47,553 nucleotides of DNA from a virus (Duplodnaviria > Caudoviricetes): positions 1 through 47,553 of IMG/VR virus record IMGVR_UViG_3300048865_000014. One strand, given 5' to 3'. The translations under genes were made by a program, and so were the position numbers. Below, one piece after another: positions 30,981 to 41,578 of the stretch (position 1 is its first letter; the number at the start of each line of letters is the position of its first letter). The notes beneath the pieces were generated by a model. It saw only the letters and a list, made by a program, of their open reading frames with translations, searched no databases and was not told where the DNA came from.

Positions 30981-33227
30981 ATGGCAACAGCCGGATCCAT
31001 CGTTATCGATCTGCTCATGAAGACGGGCAGCTTCGAGACCGACACCAAGCGTGCCGCGAAGAACCTTCAGGATCTGAACAAGCAGGCTCAAATTGCTGGT
31101 GCCGCCATTGGTACGGCCTTTGTGGCTGGGACCGCGGCTATCGCGTTCTTCGTGAAGCAGTCCATCGATACGATGGACGCCATGAGCAAGCTGGCGCAGC
31201 AGACCGGCACTACGGTGGAGTCAATCTCCGCACTCTCGTACGCGGCCTCTCTGTCGGATGTAAGCCAGGACCAACTCGGCGATGCAATCAGCCGCCTGAC
31301 AAAGAACATGAGCGACGCCGCCCGCGGGACCGGGGAGGCGCGAGCCGGATTCGCTGCTCTGGGACTTAGTGTCACCGACGCCAACGGCAACCTGAAGTCC
31401 AGCGACACAGTTCTATCAGAAATCGCGGACAAGTTCGCCGGATACCGGGACGGCGCAGAAAAGACGGCGTTAGCGGTCAACATCTTCGGGCGGGCCGGCG
31501 CCCAATTGATTCCTCTCCTGAACTCTGGGGCGGACGGTATCGCGGAACTTGAAGCAGAGGCAAAGCGGCTCGGGATCACACTTGATACCCAAACGGCCCA
31601 GGCAGCCGAGGCCTTCAACGACAGCCTCACCAAGCTGAACGCGACGTGGGAGGGGTTCAGGAACCGAGTGGCGGCCGCCGCGCTCCCCGCCCTGAATGGG
31701 TTCACTCAGGCGCTTATCGAAGCCACTACAGAGAGCGACGGCCTGGGAGAATCCACTGGGAAAATCGTCAACGAAAGCGGCTTGAAGAGTTGGGTCGATG
31801 CGGTAGCTGTTGGTCTGGCGCGGGTGGCTGATGTTGCCGTTGCGACCGCCAAGACAGTGGACGCCGTTGGGGGAAGCTTCAGGTCTGTAGCCGCCGACGT
31901 GCAGGCTTTTCTGGCCCTCGTCGGGAAGGACAACAGCGGTCTAGCCGCAATGGTCGATCCGGCTGCAGCCAAGAAGAACGCCGACGAGTATGCCGCCGTG
32001 CTGGCTTACCGGAACAAGACCGTCGAGGACGCAAACAAGGCCTATGTCGATCTGTGGACGGGGCAGGGGAACCGCTTCGAGCAGGCAGTTCTGAACGGAA
32101 TCAACGCTCCAGCTACGGACGCGGGTACCTTGCCGGCCGTCAAGACCTCCGCTCCCGCGATTGCGCCTACGTCGAAGGGCAAACAGCAGATCGATGAAGG
32201 CCAAAAGCTCATCGATCAACTGCAGAAGCAGGTCGACCTTACCGGCGAGCTGACTGAACGTCAGAAGCTTCAGATCCAAATTCAGCAAGGCTACGTTAAG
32301 TTCCAGACACAGGATCAGCAGGACAGCGCGTTGGCGTTGGCGGATACGCTGGATCTGATTCGGCAGCAGGGGCAGGAGTACGAGGCGGCGCAAAAGCGGG
32401 CCGCAGATCTTGCCAAACTTTTGGATGATCTTTACCCAGACAAATCCGTTTCCGCCGATTATCTTAAGGACCTCACTCAGCTAACCGAGGCATTACAGGC
32501 CGGCGCGATTTCAGCCAGCGACTATTACGACGCTGTTGATAGGCTGGATCAGAAGTTCGCTGATTCGAGCGACAGCATGTCGGAGTTCGCTGTTCAAGCG
32601 GCTCATAACATCGAGGATTCTCTCGGTGATGGGCTTTTCGATCTTCTTAGCGGCAACTTTGACGATATCGGAAAGAGCTGGGCCAACATGATCCTGCGGA
32701 TGATCGCCAACGCCGAGGCCGCCCAACTTGGGAAGGCATTGTTTGGTGAAGAGTTCGACAAGAGCGGAAATATTGGCGGCTTGATCGGTAAGGGGATCGC
32801 AGCAATCTTCGGCGGCGGAGGTTCCGGCCCTACTGCTGATCAATTGGCGGCCTCTACACAAGGGGTCAACGCGGCCCTTCCCCTGGCTTTCGCGGACGGC
32901 GGATACACCGGCCCGGGTGGCAAATTTGAACCAGCTGGGGTGGTCCACGCGGGCGAGTATGTCATCAACGCCACTGCCACGCGAAAGCTTGGGCTGGGCT
33001 TTTTAAACCGCCTTAACGGATACGCGGACGGCGGCTATGTCGGTAATCCGCCCGCGGCCACTGGCGGACCAAATGTGCAGGTCAACGTCGTTAACCAGAG
33101 CAGCAGCAATGTCGAGGCAACGCAAAGTGATGCCCGCTTTGACGGTGAGCGGTACATCATCAATGTGTTGCTCAAAGACAAGCAGAAGAACGGGCCTGTA
33201 TCTCGTGCATTTTCGGGGGGGCGGTGA
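30981..33227 (+). CDS. Tape measure protein
   Basis: 748 aa, Ala-rich helical; FADGGYTGPGGKFEPAGVVHAGEYV. Confidence 0.93.
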   Translation: MATAGSIVIDLLMKTGSFETDTKRAAKNLQDLNKQAQIAGAAIGTAFVAGTAAIAFFVKQSIDTMDAMSKLAQQTGTTVESISALSYAASLSDVSQDQLGDAISRLTKNMSDAARGTGEARAGFAALGLSVTDANGNLKSSDTVLSEIADKFAGYRDGAEKTALAVNIFGRAGAQLIPLLNSGADGIAELEAEAKRLGITLDTQTAQAAEAFNDSLTKLNATWEGFRNRVAAAALPALNGFTQALIEATTESDGLGESTGKIVNESGLKSWVDAVAVGLARVADVAVATAKTVDAVGGSFRSVAADVQAFLALVGKDNSGLAAMVDPAAAKKNADEYAAVLAYRNKTVEDANKAYVDLWTGQGNRFEQAVLNGINAPATDAGTLPAVKTSAPAIAPTSKGKQQIDEGQKLIDQLQKQVDLTGELTERQKLQIQIQQGYVKFQTQDQQDSALALADTLDLIRQQGQEYEAAQKRAADLAKLLDDLYPDKSVSADYLKDLTQLTEALQAGAISASDYYDAVDRLDQKFADSSDSMSEFAVQAAHNIEDSLGDGLFDLLSGNFDDIGKSWANMILRMIANAEAAQLGKALFGEEFDKSGNIGGLIGKGIAAIFGGGGSGPTADQLAASTQGVNAALPLAFADGGYTGPGGKFEPAGVVHAGEYVINATATRKLGLGFLNRLNGYADGGYVGNPPAATGGPNVQVNVVNQSSSNVEATQSDARFDGERYIINVLLKDKQKNGPVSRAFSGGR

Positions 33228-34551: not shown

Positions 34552-34857
34552 CTAGCCGCCTTCGGGCGGTTTTTTATTGGCCCGCTTCTTAGCGTTAGCT
34601 TTGTTGAGAGCCAGGTCCAGCAGTTCGTTCACCCGTTCTATCTTGGCTTGGATGTTGTCAAGTTGAGTCTGGGCGGCCTCATCGACATGTACTTTATCTG
34701 TGGCAAGTGACAGCTGTAGGCGTGTGATGATCTCCGCATTCATGGAGCGGCCGTTAGCCTTTGCTGCTGAAGCTATCTGTTCACGCATCGCCTCGTCGGG
34801 GAAGCGGACGACGAACTGCGGGGCGATGCGACTTGGGGGAGGAAGGTGCTTGGCCAT
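34552..34857 (-). CDS. Arc/Mnt-family repressor with C-terminal coiled coil (Mnt-like position)
   Basis: [38 protein letters not shown]. Confidence 0.9.
34555..34575 (+). terminator. Intrinsic terminator
   Basis: GCCGCC TTCG GGCGGT TTTTT. Confidence 0.8.
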
Positions 34858-34895
34858 GGGGTGTAGCGTAATAGCAACTACATATATTTTCCACG

Positions 34896-34932
34896 ATATG
34901 TACTTGCGATGATCGCAAATACATATTACAGT
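34896..34932 (+). promoter_or_regulatory. Promoter overlapped by 31-bp palindromic operator
   Basis: ATATGTA-C-TTGCGAT-G-ATCGCAA-A-TACATAT (34896-34926); TTGCGA(34904)-17-TACAGT(34927). Confidence 0.75.
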
Positions 34933-34960
34933 GAAGTCTCTTAATCGACAGGAGATAGAA

Positions 34961-35134
34961 GTGAGCACCCAAAAGGACTTCATCAAGACAGCGCTTCGAG
35001 TGCCGCCTGACTTGCACAAGGAAATTCACGCGGCAAGCAAGGAAAGTGAGCGGACGTTCAACGCCGAAATTGTCTACCGGCTTCGCATGTCGCTCCGCCC
35101 TACGGAACAGCGGCCACACGGAGCGCAACGATGA
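34961..35134 (+). CDS. Arc-family repressor
   Basis: [36 protein letters not shown]; GTG start with AGGAG RBS. Confidence 0.88.
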
Positions 35135-35218
35135 GCGCAAAAGGAAACGCCCCGGGAGGTGAGAGCCCCGAGGCGTTGGATTCGCAGTAACCCAACCGTC
35201 AAGTAAGGAAACCACGAA

Positions 35219-35647
35219 ATGGAAAGTACCACGACTGCCGCAAAGCGGCAAGGTTTTCGTTCCGCCCGCCATCCTCGTATGCGGCGGGATCTCCAGAAGC
35301 TCGTCATCACCAGCCCTGAGTTCGCGAGGTTCTTCTTTCTCCCGCACGACAAAGTGCTTAAGGAGTGGGACGGAGTGATAGCCAGCAGTGACCGCGAGTT
35401 CCGCCGCCGCAACTACATCCCTGGCAGGGAGTGGATCCAGTTGAGAGGCGAGCTCAAGCATCACCGAGAGGTCAACATCACGAAAGAAATGGCTGTGGAG
35501 TTGTGCCGGAGGCTGAACGGCCGGAAAGTGCGCTCGGTGCAGGCTTACTACGACGCCCCGGACGTTGCGTATGTTGATGACTGGGACAAGGCTCGCGGCT
35601 GGGACGCCGCGAACGACTGGACCGTGGCGCAAGGGGTGGCCGCATGA
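35219..35647 (+). CDS. Divergent Rha-like phage regulatory protein
   Basis: ITSPEFARFF..PHDKVLK...EF.RRNY...ITKE...L...LNGRK resembles the Rha pattern TS.EIA..F.K.H..VL...F...NF...T.D.....FTG.K. Confidence 0.6.
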   Translation: MESTTTAAKRQGFRSARHPRMRRDLQKLVITSPEFARFFFLPHDKVLKEWDGVIASSDREFRRRNYIPGREWIQLRGELKHHREVNITKEMAVELCRRLNGRKVRSVQAYYDAPDVAYVDDWDKARGWDAANDWTVAQGVAA

Positions 35648-35985
35648 ATGTGACGAATCAAACTCATGCCGGGAGGCTGCGCTGCAAAGTCGGTGACCGA
35701 GTGATGGTGATACGTGGGAAGAATACGTACTGGCTCGGCCGTACTGGCGTAGTGGTGTCGAGCGGATCCGCGGCGGTGGAGTGGTGCCGGCGTGACGAGG
35801 TACCTGAGGTTGCGCGCCGAGATTGGGTCGTGATGCTGTCTGAGCCGATTGCAGCCATCAGGGACGGGAGAGCCTTCGAAACGTTACATCTTGCCTGCGC
35901 TGACGTGCAGTTGATGCCGATTTCCCACTTCGATGCTGAGGCCTCGGTGGAGTCGGCCGGCACCATTGAGACGGAGGTGGCGTGA
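35644..35985 (+). CDS. Hypothetical protein with KOW/SH3-like N-terminus
   Basis: CKVGDRVMVIRG...GRTGVVV; translationally coupled on both sides. Confidence 0.65.
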   Translation: MNVTNQTHAGRLRCKVGDRVMVIRGKNTYWLGRTGVVVSSGSAAVEWCRRDEVPEVARRDWVVMLSEPIAAIRDGRAFETLHLACADVQLMPISHFDAEASVESAGTIETEVA

Positions 35986-36554
35986 TGGATATCCTGAATA
36001 TCAAGATAGTTGGCACGTCGCCGCTGATGATGCACGCGGATAAGTTGGCCAATCCGCTGTTGCCGGAGTCGAAGGCCCACAAGGAGCTGACCTCTAAGCG
36101 GAAGAAGACGGACGAGGATCATTTGGCTATCGCCCGATCCGAGTTCATCGCTGGGGCGTACTTCGACCCGACGGTGGGCTTTTTCGTGCCCGGCCAGAAT
36201 CTGGACGCCACCTTCTGGGCCGGCGCCAAATTGCAGAAGCTTGGGGTGCATTGGCGACGTGCAGCGGTAGTGATGACGGACAAAGCCAAGCTTCTTTTTG
36301 ACGGCCCGTCTACGCCTGACGCGTTGTGGGAAGACCCGTCATTTGTTGATTGCCGAGGCGTCAAGGTAGGCACGGCCAAGCTGATGCGGTATCGACCAAT
36401 CTTCCGTGAGTGGACCACGGAGGTCGAGGTTGCGATCAATACGGAGATTCTGAACATCAATGAAGTCAAGAAAGCCATTGACGATGCTGGAGCGCTTATC
36501 GGGACTTGCGAGTTCCGCCCTCGGTTTGGACGCTTCGAGGTGCGCTATGACTGA
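35982..36554 (+). CDS. Minimal RAMP/Cas7-like RNA-binding protein (candidate Vipr-type effector)
   Basis: N-terminal strand IKIVGTSPLMMH, central FFVPGQNLDATF (cf. RAMP iPGSslKG), C-terminal Gly loop GALIGTCEFRPRFGRFEV; GGAGG RBS; upstream of GGY-NN arrays. Confidence 0.75.
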   Translation: MMDILNIKIVGTSPLMMHADKLANPLLPESKAHKELTSKRKKTDEDHLAIARSEFIAGAYFDPTVGFFVPGQNLDATFWAGAKLQKLGVHWRRAAVVMTDKAKLLFDGPSTPDALWEDPSFVDCRGVKVGTAKLMRYRPIFREWTTEVEVAINTEILNINEVKKAIDDAGALIGTCEFRPRFGRFEVRYD

Positions 36555-37017
36555 ACAATCCGTCGAGTTGGCGCGGTTCCCCGCTTGGCGCCAGGCGGTG
36601 CAGGACTTTTTGACGGAGTTCAGGTACGGCGATGTGATCAGTCATGCATGGCTAGCCGAACATTTCGGGATGCCGTCGATCAAAGAAAGCCGCCGCCTGA
36701 CCGCAGCGGAGTTCCAAGAGCGCCAGTTTGAATGGCTGGCAAACATCGAAGCGTTCAAGGGCGAACTGTTGCGTGAGCATCAAGTGTGCTTGCAGTCGGT
36801 TCGCGGGGAGGGCTACCGGTGGGTTCCCCCGCAGGAGCAGACCGGATACGCGACGCGGGAGTTCGTCAAGGACGTGCGCAGGATCTTCCGTGGCACAGGT
36901 CAGAAGTTGCGAAACCTGAGGGTGTCGGAACTGACCGACGATCAGAGGAAGGAAAACGCGGATGCCGCCGCCAAGCTGACGGCATTGCGCGGGATGACAC
37001 GGAAGGCTTTGGAATAG
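36547..37017 (+). CDS. Putative winged-helix accessory protein of the RAMP-like module
   Basis: YGDVISHAWLAEHF...LQSVRGEGYRWV (OmpR-like wing), helical C-terminus; overlaps RAMP-like gene by 8 nt. Confidence 0.7.
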   Translation: MTEQSVELARFPAWRQAVQDFLTEFRYGDVISHAWLAEHFGMPSIKESRRLTAAEFQERQFEWLANIEAFKGELLREHQVCLQSVRGEGYRWVPPQEQTGYATREFVKDVRRIFRGTGQKLRNLRVSELTDDQRKENADAAAKLTALRGMTRKALE

Positions 37018-37021
37018 TTTT

Positions 37022-37135
37022 GGTGAGGTGGGCTGGGCCAAGGTAAGGCGTGATCTGGCCGGGTACGGCGTGGTGCGCTTTGGTAGGGCAAGGGCTGACA
37101 ACAGCGGGTAGCGTCTTCGAGAGAGGGCGCTATCC
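37022..37135 (+). ncRNA. GGY-NN pentamer tract 1 + hairpins (candidate guide RNA)
   Basis: 14 in-phase pentamers 37022-37091, all G-N-Y-N-N (10 of 14 GGY), then GCTG-ACAA-CAGC and a 13-bp stem with GAGA loop (37106-37135). Confidence 0.75.
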
Positions 37136-37150
37136 GATGCAGTTAGCTTT

Positions 37151-37279
37151 GGCAGAGCATGCTGAGGTATGGCATGGCGGGGTGTGGTCAGGCAAGGTGA
37201 GCCGCGGTTAGGCGAGCTGAGGTACGGCCAGGCAAGGCGAGGCAGGGGCAGTAAATCGGGGCGCTCTTCGGAGCGCCCC
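37151..37279 (+). ncRNA. GGY-NN pentamer tract 2 + hairpin (candidate guide RNA)
   Basis: 19 in-phase pentamers 37151-37245 (15 of 19 GGY), then GGGGCGCTC-TTCG-GAGCGCCCC (37258-37279) followed by TTCTTATT (terminator-like). Confidence 0.75.
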
Positions 37280-37298
37280 TTCTTATTGGAGAACTGGA

Positions 37299-37682
37299 TT
37301 GCATTGGAGCGACAAGTACGTCGGGCAGCCTTACGTGGCAGAAGTTGGCGATTGCGCTGGTCTGGCCGCCAAGGTTGCGCGAGACGTTCTCGGCATCGAC
37401 TGCGGTTTGCCATCGTCCCATGCGACCGGGTTGCGTGAGCAGTCCGCCCAGGTTATGGCGAACAAAGACGCGCTGGCCGTCCGTGTGGATAAGCCAGCCG
37501 ATGCGCAGCCAGCGCTATTCCTGGCGCGTGGCCGTCTCGCCCATATCGGGGTGGTCTGCTTAATCGGCAGCGAAGTGTGGATCCTTCATGCCGATCAATC
37601 CGCTGGCGCCGTCGTCCGAGAGCGCCTGACTCGTATGACCGAATTCCGCTACACCCTTGAGGGATTCTACAAATGGCTGTAG
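37299..37682 (+). CDS. NlpC/P60-like tail tip assembly protein (gpK-like)
   Basis: HWSDKYVGQPY...DCAGL, HIGV, ILHA, EGFYKW; TTG start. Confidence 0.85.
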   Translation: MHWSDKYVGQPYVAEVGDCAGLAAKVARDVLGIDCGLPSSHATGLREQSAQVMANKDALAVRVDKPADAQPALFLARGRLAHIGVVCLIGSEVWILHADQSAGAVVRERLTRMTEFRYTLEGFYKWL

Positions 37683-40600
37683 CAAAGCTGCCCGCTGTTG
37701 TTTCCTGGCCGCATGCTTTCACGGACGAAGGGCGACAGTATTCCTATGCTGCCTTCCTTCCGGGAGAAACGCTTGGCAGGTATGTCGAGCGCGTGGAGAT
37801 GGACGTGGCGCAGGGCCGAGTGCGAGTTCTTCACAATGGCCGAGACGTGCCTGTCGATCTATGGCGAAACCTGATACCGCGACAGGGCGACCAGATCATC
37901 ATCCGATCCTGGCCGGAGGGTGGCGGGGACGGAAGCAAGATTCTCAGAACCGTCGCGCTGGTCGTTGTCGCGATTGTCTCGTACGGTGTGGGAGTAGCCG
38001 TCGGTGGTGCATATGGCGCGGCTGCTGCTGCTGCAATATCCATCGGCGGCAGCCTCCTAGTCAACGCCCTGATTCCGCTGCCCAAACCAAATCTCGCCAG
38101 CAGCGCGAACAGTACCGATAACGCCCCAAGCTTTCAGATTCAGGCCTCGCGCAACACTGCACGCCCGTGGGAGCCCATGCTGCTCGTGATGGGAGGACCC
38201 GTTAAGGTCGTTCCGGATCTGGCCAGCAACCCGTCGACCAGTTATGTAGGTGACGACCAGTACCTATCCCAAGCGTTCCACTTTGGCTTGCAACCGGACC
38301 TGCTGGTCTACAACTACAAGATTGGCGACAGCCCGCTTGAGAATTTCCAGGGTGTGCAGACACAGCGTTCTGGCTGGGACGGAAAGTTGTCGATTGTTTG
38401 GGACAACATCGACACCATCCAGGGATTCGATCTGAACCAGGTCGACGGCTGGAACTACAGAACGACCCCGCCGGATACGGTGTACTTCAATATTGAGCTC
38501 GCCGCGGTCCTGTATAGCTTGGACACCCTGACGGGAAAGTTCAATCCCCGTACTGTAACTGTACAGATTCACTACCGGGACGTGACCGGTGGCGACTGGG
38601 TTCCACTGGGATCCTATACGGATCCGGTTTATGCGACTCATTACTGGGCGCTGGGGGTTTATCAGGGACTCGCCAATGGTGAAAGCGCGACTTCAGGGTC
38701 AGAGTGGATTCAGGTTAACTATGGTTCGCTAGACCCTGATGACCACGTGAACGGCGAGCAGTACCAGGTATGCCAGACGTGGGGTGGTGGTGACGCCGGC
38801 GACAACTATTCCTGCCAGACTTACGAGTGGCGCTGGCTGCCACACCCTTTCCAGTTGGGAAGGCCGTGGCAGGGGACGGCGCCTGATCCGCTAATCGGAT
38901 ACACGACCTCCGATGGATATCGGATGACGGGCGATTCCAACAAGGCCATACGGCAGACCATAGGCGCCTCTGTGCCTCGCGGGCAGTACGAGATTGCCAT
39001 TCGCAAGCTGACGGAAGACCTGAGCAGCAACACAGACTCCACCGTCACATCGATTCCTCAGATCCGAGCCTACCAAGACACTCCTACGGATTACAGTCAT
39101 CAGTTGCGAGTGGGAATATGCATCAAGGCTACGTCCCAACTGAACGGACCCATCGATGAACTATCCGCGACATGCCAAGCTCAGTGCAATGTATGGAATG
39201 GATCCTCGTGGGTATACACCACGACGCGCAATCCCGCATGGTGGTTCCTCTGGTTCGCCCTGGGGCGACGAGACGAGAGCGGCAACAAAGAGTACGGGGC
39301 CTGTATCCCTGACACACAGATCGACATTGAAGGTATAAAAGCCTGGGGCGCGTACTGCGATGCTAAGGGCTGGACATTCGACTATGTACTGGCACAGAAG
39401 ATGTCTGTGCACGATGTGCTGACGATGATTGCGCGTGCGGGCCAAGCCTCCTACACCTGGCAGTCTGGGAAGTTGGGCGTTATTTGGGATGCTGCTGATC
39501 AGCCCACGGTCGCATTGATCGGGCCGTACAACATCCGTGCTGGCACTTTCGAAGTCAGCTATGTTGATGGAACCGTTGACGAGATCATTGGCAACTTCGT
39601 CAACAAGGACCGAGATTGGCAGGCGGATCAAGTACGTGTCCGAGTGCCGAACGCTCCGCTTCTCAACAATCCCCAGACTTTCGACCTTGAGGGTATTGTC
39701 GACGCGGCTGTGGCCGGCAGGGTTGTGAACCTTCTGGCTGCAAGTCAAAACTTCCACCGCCGCCGAATCTCATGGGAAATGGACATCGAGGGGTATATCG
39801 CTACCCGCGGCGATGTAGTACGCCTGACGCATGACTTGACGGTTTGGGGCTATTCGGGCCGGCTCGTCGGAGCTACGCGACAGGTCGATGGGAGTGGAAG
39901 CGGTACGTCGGTGATCCTGCGTCTTTCAACCACGGTGCCGATATCGTCAAGTGGCTGGATGATATTGCGAGGGCCAGAGAACCAAGCCGTCGTATTTCGG
40001 GTTGTGGGCACGGGTAATGTCGATGAGGTGAGCCTGCTTAACCCGGCCGACCTTGATGGGTTCCCGCTGCCCGGAGATGCAAGTTATGCGGACGTTTCGT
40101 CTTTGGATTGGGCGTGGCAGTTCGATCCCCTGGCAATTCCAGGCCGCCGTCTGAAGATTGTTAGTGCTTCACCAACGAACGATGATGGCGTTCGATTCGA
40201 AGCCGTTGATGACGACCCGAACTATTACGCAACCGAAGCTAACCCATTCGTATATTCGCCGCCTCGAGATGGGTCCCTGCTTCGCGGGATAGTGATGGCG
40301 GTCTTCTTCGAGGAATCTATCGTCAGTGCGCCTATGGATGATATCCAAGTCAGAGTTGACTGGGTGATCTCCGCGGCCATGAGGGTGAATATTGACTACC
40401 GAATCAATGGTGTAGCCAAGCCTACGGTGACCACCAATGATCGCTTCTTCACGATTCAGGCCCACACCGGCGATGTGTTGAGTGTCACTGTCACCCCTGT
40501 TTCTCCTACTGGGTTGGGTGTGGCCAAGTCAGCATCCATGACAGTGGCCGGTCTTACTGCGCCTCTGCCCGCAGTCACTGGGCTGACAAGCGTCTTCCGA

Positions 40601-41578
40601 GATGGGCTCACGTGGCTTTCGTGGACCAGGGTGGAGGACAGACGAAATCCGTCCTATGAGATTCGTATCGGTCCTACGCCGACGAATGCCAGAACAGTCG
40701 CGGTGACCGACGCGCTGGAATCTCTAGCGGTTGGCAACGGGCTCTACTGGGTGTTCCCCCGGTTCGCCATATCAAACGGGATCATCATCTACGGGCCGCC
40801 GGATAGCATACTGATTGATGGAGCGACGCTGGTACGTAACGTGCTCGTCGTGCAGGACGAAGCGCCGGAGTGGGGAGGAACGCTGTCAGGCGGCGCCTAT
40901 GTGCATGATGGGATGCTCACGCTGGCCCCTCAGGGAGATATCCTTAGTCTCGCCGATGTTCTGTCAGAACAAGACGTATTGTGGTTCGGCGGCCCTGCTG
41001 CCAATGGGTCCTACACCAACGCTGTATCCGACCAGGTGGATATCGGGTTCGTTACTCCTGTGCGCGTGGACTTCAGTATCGAAGTGGCGGCGAGGAACGT
41101 CACCGCAGATGTGTTCACTATCCCCGACATACTTGCAGTCGAGGATGTGTTGAATGGCTCTGACTTGGTCAAGGTCTCCGTAATCCCTCAAATTCGAACG
41201 GCAATCGCTGAAGGGGAGTGGAGCGACTGGCGTAACTATGTTCCTGGGCTTATCAACGCGCGATACTTCGATGTTCGCCTGCTGATAGCCACTGCCGATC
41301 CTCTGATCATCCCTTTCGTCAGCAAGTTCGAATGGACCATTGATGTTCCCGATATGCTTCAACGCGGGGAAAGCGTGCTGGTTGCATCGTCCGGTCAACG
41401 CATCACCTACGCAAAGCAGTTCCACCACAATCCAAATGTCCAGATCACTATCCTGGATGCCGTTGCGGGAGATTGGTATTCGCTCACGGGCGATGATGAG
41501 ACTGGTTTCAATATACGTCTCTTCAACAACTCAACCGCGGTTCAGCGGCAAATAAACTGGATAAGCCAAGGATACTGA
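37673..41578 (+). CDS. Tail tip / host specificity protein (gpI-like N-terminus fused to gpJ-like)
   Basis: 1301 aa; GGGDGSKILRTVAL + hydrophobic stretch, RNTARPWEPM, TRNPAW, RGDVV.LTHD, FN3-like segments. Confidence 0.9.
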   Translation: MAVAKLPAVVSWPHAFTDEGRQYSYAAFLPGETLGRYVERVEMDVAQGRVRVLHNGRDVPVDLWRNLIPRQGDQIIIRSWPEGGGDGSKILRTVALVVVAIVSYGVGVAVGGAYGAAAAAAISIGGSLLVNALIPLPKPNLASSANSTDNAPSFQIQASRNTARPWEPMLLVMGGPVKVVPDLASNPSTSYVGDDQYLSQAFHFGLQPDLLVYNYKIGDSPLENFQGVQTQRSGWDGKLSIVWDNIDTIQGFDLNQVDGWNYRTTPPDTVYFNIELAAVLYSLDTLTGKFNPRTVTVQIHYRDVTGGDWVPLGSYTDPVYATHYWALGVYQGLANGESATSGSEWIQVNYGSLDPDDHVNGEQYQVCQTWGGGDAGDNYSCQTYEWRWLPHPFQLGRPWQGTAPDPLIGYTTSDGYRMTGDSNKAIRQTIGASVPRGQYEIAIRKLTEDLSSNTDSTVTSIPQIRAYQDTPTDYSHQLRVGICIKATSQLNGPIDELSATCQAQCNVWNGSSWVYTTTRNPAWWFLWFALGRRDESGNKEYGACIPDTQIDIEGIKAWGAYCDAKGWTFDYVLAQKMSVHDVLTMIARAGQASYTWQSGKLGVIWDAADQPTVALIGPYNIRAGTFEVSYVDGTVDEIIGNFVNKDRDWQADQVRVRVPNAPLLNNPQTFDLEGIVDAAVAGRVVNLLAASQNFHRRRISWEMDIEGYIATRGDVVRLTHDLTVWGYSGRLVGATRQVDGSGSGTSVILRLSTTVPISSSGWMILRGPENQAVVFRVVGTGNVDEVSLLNPADLDGFPLPGDASYADVSSLDWAWQFDPLAIPGRRLKIVSASPTNDDGVRFEAVDDDPNYYATEANPFVYSPPRDGSLLRGIVMAVFFEESIVSAPMDDIQVRVDWVISAAMRVNIDYRINGVAKPTVTTNDRFFTIQAHTGDVLSVTVTPVSPTGLGVAKSASMTVAGLTAPLPAVTGLTSVFRDGLTWLSWTRVEDRRNPSYEIRIGPTPTNARTVAVTDALESLAVGNGLYWVFPRFAISNGIIIYGPPDSILIDGATLVRNVLVVQDEAPEWGGTLSGGAYVHDGMLTLAPQGDILSLADVLSEQDVLWFGGPAANGSYTNAVSDQVDIGFVTPVRVDFSIEVAARNVTADVFTIPDILAVEDVLNGSDLVKVSVIPQIRTAIAEGEWSDWRNYVPGLINARYFDVRLLIATADPLIIPFVSKFEWTIDVPDMLQRGESVLVASSGQRITYAKQFHHNPNVQITILDAVAGDWYSLTGDDETGFNIRLFNNSTAVQRQINWISQGY

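Follow-up and report, generated by a model that had tools for sequence, protein, structure and literature searches.

A VIPR cassette in a temperate phage genome carries a guide RNA that matches codon positions 1 and 2 of the tail-tip gene tipJ of related phages better than those of the carrier's own tipJ, and on sequence grounds we think it likely that the Vipr-RNA complex represses tail genes of kin and probably spares the carrier itself. The initial annotation of this DNA had named the homologous tail-tip gene of other phages as the true target of the first guide, and this is now supported by the comparison of sites, which are matched at 20-24 of 26 guide bases in kin versus 18 of 26 in the carrier. 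As a whole, the locus seems to hold one well-supported natural target and a second, probable one, and its signal of self-escape is suggestive.

The window, i.e. the whole 47.5-kb virus record that was analysed, contains integrase, terminase, portal, major head, tape-measure, tipJ and endolysin genes, and judged from this gene content the carrier is therefore a temperate long-tailed phage. The closest named homologues of its TipJ and tape-measure proteins come from Bordetella bronchialis and from Bordetella genomospecies 9 and 11, and these protein neighbours suggest a host of the Bordetella/Achromobacter-type group. L111 is labelled Pseudomonas sp., yet it came up within the family of an Achromobacter genome. 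The features discussed in the following are collected in Table 1.

Table 1. Features of the VIPR cassette and of the tail genes in the window, with the basis of each assignment.
Feature	Position	Strand	Basis
Arc-like repressor gene, divergent from the cassette operon	34552..35019	-	Pfam Arc, 1.5e-15; real start probably further in
Small ribbon-helix-helix-like gene, operon gene 1	34931..35134	+	ORF; HicB-family match 5.5e-4, just under the cut-off
142-aa gene, common to the window and the Vipr-less relative L102	35219..35647	+	71% identity
113-aa gene directly 5' of vipr, within the stretch replacing the L102 ORF6N gene	35644..35985	+	weak KOW/SH3 matches only
vipr, RAMP-like guide-binding protein, 189 aa	35985..36554	+	PDB 36pp (SUSP1 Vipr); phrog_4652
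Accessory gene, vap1-like by position and homology	36547..37017	+	phrog_5926
vrRNA1 repeat tract, 14 GGY/NN units	37022..37091	+	units 2-11 fit kin tipJ; unit 14 scaffold
vrRNA1 structured 3' tail	37092..37150	+	fold z -8.3; covariation
vrRNA2 repeat tract, up to 19 units	37151..37245	+	units 8-17 fit kin tape-measure gene
Terminator-like hairpin	37258..37289	+	similar terminator also ends the L102 version
Tape-measure gene	30981..33227	+	PHROG tape-measure families
Own copy of the guide 2 site, tape-measure codons 458-473, 20/32 (14/20 over units 8-17)	32352..32399	+	gapped match
tipJ, central tail fibre gene	37673..41578	+	phrog_31, 9e-104; Pfam PF24801 and PF13550
Own copy of the guide 1 site, tipJ codons 85-97, 18/26	37925..37963	+	gapped match

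By homology and gene order, the cassette is a representative of the published VIPR system (bioRxiv 10.64898/2026.04.26.720920), and likely of its type II. The RAMP-like protein aligns over its full length with Vipr of SUSP1 (PDB 36pp; phmmer E 1.1e-45, residues 1-187). In this alignment, with residues counted manually, H17, K33, R39, K82, R138 and R179 are kept, and D177 is replaced by E, W178 by F and K88 by V. A homologue of the accessory gene adjoins vipr in most of 80 vipr loci, and the gene shares 25% identity with the vipr-adjacent gene of Felixounavirus-type phages. No Pfam or PHROG family was found for the 142-aa gene, and no homologue of the 113-aa gene in L102-L110 or in the 80 vipr loci. 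In the closest relative, L102, in whose record no Vipr was found, an ORF6N gene takes the slot of the cassette behind a divergent Arc-like pair (34552-37289 of the window compared with L102:3830-5620), and the gene in the place of the small ribbon-helix-helix-like gene belongs to Pfam Arc. A Vipr query, run with no positive control and on some incomplete records, found no match in ten target records (5 + 5) or 14 genomes. One RNA run, available as contigs of low depth, covers parts of vipr and tipJ and not the guides, and it is neutral on expression.

Repeated and inverted motifs with 15-nt arms at 34896-34926 are present at 34875-34930, between the divergent Arc-like genes, and they are possibly operators. 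Among the 80 vipr loci, nine have an Arc homologue near vipr, which in eight of these lies upstream on the opposite strand. The layout of the cassette behind a divergent Arc-like pair resembles the immI antirepressor operon of P22 and suggests, by analogy, a regulated expression of the cassette upon infection or induction.

As far as the published VIPR texts go (10.64898/2026.04.26.720920, 10.64898/2026.04.26.720927), one Vipr subunit occupies each pentamer of the vrRNA, with the GGY held by the protein and the NN paired to DNA. The pairing leaves out every third base of the target, and transcription is repressed from either strand and with no PAM. The same texts give about 9-16 GGY/NN units for a vrRNA and a cut-off of at least 80% NN match for natural targets. 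The dinucleotides of guide 1 that the initial annotation had read from the repeat tract were confirmed from the pentamers at 37022-37091, and the series is GA GG GG AA AA GT CT CG AC GT GC TT AG AA. Ten of the 14 units have a canonical scaffold and four have degenerate triplets (GCT, GCC, GAT, GCT). Since these coincide with the type of change, GGY substitutions, that the legend of fig. S12 names among the constructs testing loss of silencing (10.64898/2026.04.26.720920), guide 1 may be weak. Guide 2, with up to 19 units, exceeds the published range. In the stem of the vrRNA tail, 12 of 17 consensus pairs are changed on both sides among 15 tails.

The units close to this tail seem to be constrained. 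Of 119 distinct related guides (L022-L101), 97 have AA or AT as their final NN and 23 have AA as the penultimate NN, versus about 10% in inner units. Because of the near-constant final NN, unit 14 of guide 1 is taken as scaffold, a detail that differs from the initial annotation, and counting it as a targeting unit was rejected. This leaves 13 units, i.e. 26 bases, as the fair denominator for guide 1. In both guides the matched core comprises ten units and stops short of the tail by two or three units; from these two guides only, this hints that tail-proximal units read little.

A perfect target of guide 1 was not found: units 1-12 gave no exact match in IMG/VR, and the best site reaches 24 of 26 bases. 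A 16-base gapped core (units 4-11) retrieved 21 loci from IMG/VR, 15 of which are situated in tipJ homologues at the homologous motif. All of these 15 also match units 2-3, which were absent from the query, and they score 22-23 of 24, as compared with 18-19 of 24 for the remaining six. When the same dinucleotides were searched with a 2-nt skip, 12 loci at 17-19 of 24 and none above 19 were obtained, and these have no common sequence beyond two duplicate pairs. With a 20-base core, tipJ was hit in all five metagenome loci and in two of three GTDB loci. Units 2-13 with at most three mismatches gave six matches in 401 genomes of the G001 family, all six in tipJ, versus none for a reversed pattern in the same genomes. 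Two of the six, G001 and G002, were previously known and two more are the same sites as IMG/VR prophages; the tipJ matches are overlapping views of one gene family across collections and not independent events. With this understanding, the database search proposed in the initial annotation, with its skip and shuffle controls, did find tipJ enriched over skip, shuffle and reversed-pattern controls.

The enrichment is also seen in whole genomes. In eight related prophages, five of which were picked by protein similarity and three by pattern, the best site at a 1-nt skip is always in tipJ (20-24 of 26), and guide 1 at skips of 0, 2 and 3 attains at best 16-18 of 26. G004 and G005, which were found by protein, score 22, a value that none of 1000 shuffles reaches. 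Likewise, nine tipJ loci found by protein and not by pattern score 20-22 of 26, versus 18 in self. Among 23 distinct kin DNA sites, one scores 20, two 21, nine 22, ten 23 and one 24 of 26, which places 22 of them above the 80% cut-off (21-24 of 26), and at all 23 the guide fits kin better than self. The ten-unit core is matched at 20 of 20 bases at 18 of these sites, and unit 13 is never fully matched at any. The target motif in kin reads GGGNKVLRTVA(L/M). Units 2-3 of the guide coincide with a glycine run. As had been claimed from the carrier's own gene, the skipped base falls on the wobble position, the tipJ sites being in codon phase on the sense strand. Conservation across the 23 kin sites is 98-100% for the first two codon positions and 67% for position 3, figures that are partly circular as most sites were found by pattern.

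One might object that guide 1 matches tipJ by coincidence, through a conserved motif rich in glycine, and that the real target is an unsampled element, for example a satellite. The lack of a perfect match would agree with this, and 16-base patterns can converge on gene families by chance, but the units outside the query match in 15 of 15 tipJ loci, the controls are flat, and guide 2 points independently to a second tail gene in this group of phages. Even a satellite, if it had a tipJ-like gene, would be the same kind of target, and we consider a mere coincidence to be extremely improbable.

In the carrier's own tipJ, the codons at 37925-37960 read GGG GAC GGA AGC AAG ATT CTC AGA ACC GTC GCG CTG. 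The match of 18 of 24 bases in codon phase that the initial annotation described here was confirmed, and the next-best site in the window scores 15 over the same 12 units. The value of 18 of 24 is obtained only with the last two units dropped, and it is reached by 107 of 2000 shuffles of the NN order and by 63 of 2000 base shuffles. Over 13 units, 221 of 1000 shuffles reach the self score, and over 14 units (18 of 28) 1404 of 2000 order shuffles do. The count and the codon phase hold, but the self match alone is hardly above chance (107 of 2000 shuffles); lying inside or at the edge of the shuffle null, it was rejected as stand-alone evidence. The own sites of guide 1 and guide 2 are matched at 69% and 63%, both below the 80% cut-off for natural targets, and would bind poorly. 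The six self mismatches by which self was thought to be spared are all present, but only four of them separate self from kin, as kin sites are mismatched too in unit 1 (all 23) and in unit 12 (22 of the 23). The self-specific mismatches are G to D in unit 2, N to S in unit 4, V to I in unit 6 and a silent change of Arg CGN to AGA in unit 8. AGA accounts for 8 of the 265 Arg codons that 13 late genes contain.

These partial matches could also be understood as functional, such that the guides act on the carrier's own tail genes and tune late transcription, for instance in the lysogen, with the fit to kin reflecting ancestral sequence. The own tipJ is indeed the best guide 1 site in the window and the own tape-measure site at 32352 ties for the best guide 2 site, and a mismatch tolerance of VIPR was not found stated in the texts consulted of the VIPR papers. 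However, the self scores lie inside the shuffle null and under 80%, and the P. fulva clade and types III and V have no self match of at least 80% (10.64898/2026.04.26.720920). A self-directed guide would further be expected to fit self best, whereas guide 1 favours kin at 23 of 23 sites. We therefore regard such self-regulation as very unlikely.

Guide 2 has a probable target in the tape-measure gene of kin. Its units 3-18 match 25 of 32 bases in the tape-measure gene of G405 and 24 of 32 in that of G005, both from the same eight prophages, which were not selected for guide 2, and 25 of 32 is reached by none of 1000 shuffles. As in tipJ, these sites lie on the sense strand and in codon phase, and the best kin site corresponds to 78% at the DNA level, just below the 80% cut-off. 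Over units 8-17, a span chosen after the match had been seen, the kin site is matched at 19 of 20 bases. Over the same units, 12 full homologues permit 14-20 of 20, ten of them at least 17, versus 14 in self, where the homologue figures are protein-level maxima. A 19-base pattern of guide 2 found three IMG/VR loci, two of which are tape-measure homologues, and one prophage, G016, carries both a guide 1 and a guide 2 site, 4.3 kb apart. Guide 2 is nevertheless less secure than guide 1, since its search in 151 genomes gave one match, the site in G016, and one control match. Units 6-16 with at most three mismatches gave no match in 14 genomes of one genus.

Two 16-base cores of guide 2 were tried and rejected, as they retrieved 38 and 39 loci from unrelated families with poor flanks (at most 25 of 32). 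Of these 77 loci, a single one has a weak tblastx match to the window, and this lies outside the tape-measure gene. The 16-base scans converged by chance on unrelated families, and convergence alone therefore proves little.

If the guides work as in other VIPR systems, Vipr and vrRNA1 would bind kin tipJ about 250 nt into the gene and block its transcription, and the complex with vrRNA2 would place a roadblock inside the kin tape-measure gene. A co-resident or incoming relative would in this way be starved of tail parts, and perhaps of the products of downstream late genes. A guide reading that is limited to codon positions 1-2 would leave the rival few silent escapes, and four core mismatches for guide 1 and six for guide 2, each within a ten-unit core, would keep self binding low.

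The self-tolerance could also have been there before the cassette. According to such an explanation, the cassette was imported with relic guides once aimed at this phage family, which are tolerated by pre-existing divergence and are perhaps decaying. The cassette occupies the slot of the ORF6N gene in L102, and L102, which is closest to the carrier in the guide-site region and has no Vipr found in its record, already carries the S and I variants. Both are common natural variants, with S88 present in 18 and I90 in 43 of 119 TipJ homologues (D in 7 of 119), and the degenerate scaffold triplets and the lack of a perfect target would fit a relic as well. In contrast, vipr and vap are intact, the tail fold is kept, and the ten-unit core matches present-day kin at 20 of 20 bases at 18 of 23 sites. 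A pre-existing divergence would be compatible with repression of kin tail genes, for which it would explain the origin of self-tolerance; only an inactive cassette would be a true rival, and this appears unlikely to us. S, I and D motif variants recur in other TipJ branches (P0011, P0016, P0023-P0030), and one of these reads GDGSKIL.

Whether the own copies diverged in order to escape was addressed in both tail genes. The own TipJ motif state looks derived: in a tree computed without the guide site, from 30 of the 120 homologues listed and L102, six of the eight rows in the sister group of the own TipJ have NKV, as do most of the branches that follow. At the protein level there is no excess: of the 22 deviations in 130 conserved columns, one falls inside the site. 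Compared with L102, three of the first 107 tipJ codons differ at positions 1-2, two of them within the 13-codon footprint, an excess with p 0.04 for a boundary picked afterwards and p 0.23 over 140 codons. Over residues 1-140 (L102:6001-6420), L102 TipJ is 93% identical to that of the window but groups with P0004 beyond, and this suggests a recombination of tipJ near the guide site in L102.

In the own tape-measure protein, residues R461, G464, Q465, E466 and A469 are found in none of 13 homologues, and in its count of unique residues per 10 residues the footprint is equalled by one other region of the protein and exceeded by none. Relative to the closest homologue, 10 of 32 bases at codon positions 1-2 differ in the footprint, versus 7 of 100 in flanks of 25 codons. 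Tests on conserved columns gave p 0.03-0.06, and pairwise tests of the site versus seven homologues, against the wider region, gave p 0.08-0.58, none being significant. A selection for self-divergence at the guide sites is suggestive on these figures (p 0.03-0.2). The more far-reaching view, that VIPR drives kin discrimination, with both guides aimed at shared tail motifs and own tail-tip and tape-measure residues pushed to new states inside the footprints, is tentative, and we would rate it as somewhat more doubtful than probable. If true, an RNA weapon would shape the sequence of its carrier's own virion.

VIPR has no known PAM, and the locus bears on how self is avoided against close relatives. 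For both guides it naturally pairs a kin site with a self site, with four core mismatches in one case and six in the other, and these sets could be used directly to measure the mismatch tolerance, the role of the tail-adjacent units and the effect of degenerate GGY. Going by the published texts, tail genes of relatives would be an addition to the natural target classes of VIPR. As both the system and its code have already been published, the surprise is limited.

Class 1 CRISPR-Cas complexes, as described in the VIPR papers, are alike in that a filament with the RAMP fold assembles on a guide RNA and recognises DNA; unlike in those complexes, the pairing is gapped and not contiguous, and neither a CRISPR array nor a cas gene was noticed at the cassette locus. 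With type II VIPR, as known from SUSP1 and from Pseudomonas fulva prophage clades, the cassette shares vipr, one accessory gene and a GGY/NN guide array with a structured 3' tail, as well as a 1-nt skip at the wobble position, other phages as targets and a self match below 80%. The literature thus already has skipping of the wobble base, targeting of phages by phages and lower scores on self. Natural type II targets, as far as the published texts list them, are a satellite for SUSP1 and mainly prophage lysis-lysogeny regulators for P. fulva (10.64898/2026.04.26.720920, 10.64898/2026.04.26.720927). Unlike these, both guides described here fit virion tail genes with homologues in the carrier, one of them about 830 bp downstream, and the host group, probably of Bordetella/Achromobacter type as judged from protein neighbours, differs as well. 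In the VIPR texts consulted, no guides directed at tail genes of the carrier's own kind were found; the full target list (data S3) may hold some. A further parallel appears in the solo and cross-targeting vrRNAs, for which the available text reports wobble-aligned footprints on conserved codons and self scores below those of rival phages, interpreted as avoidance of autoimmunity (10.64898/2026.10.15.759431). In that work, self and non-self are contrasted for guides directed against vrRNAs, and vipr, satellites and REP elements are the other targets reported, whereas in the present locus the contrast falls on essential structural genes and involves amino-acid changes in the carrier's own copy.
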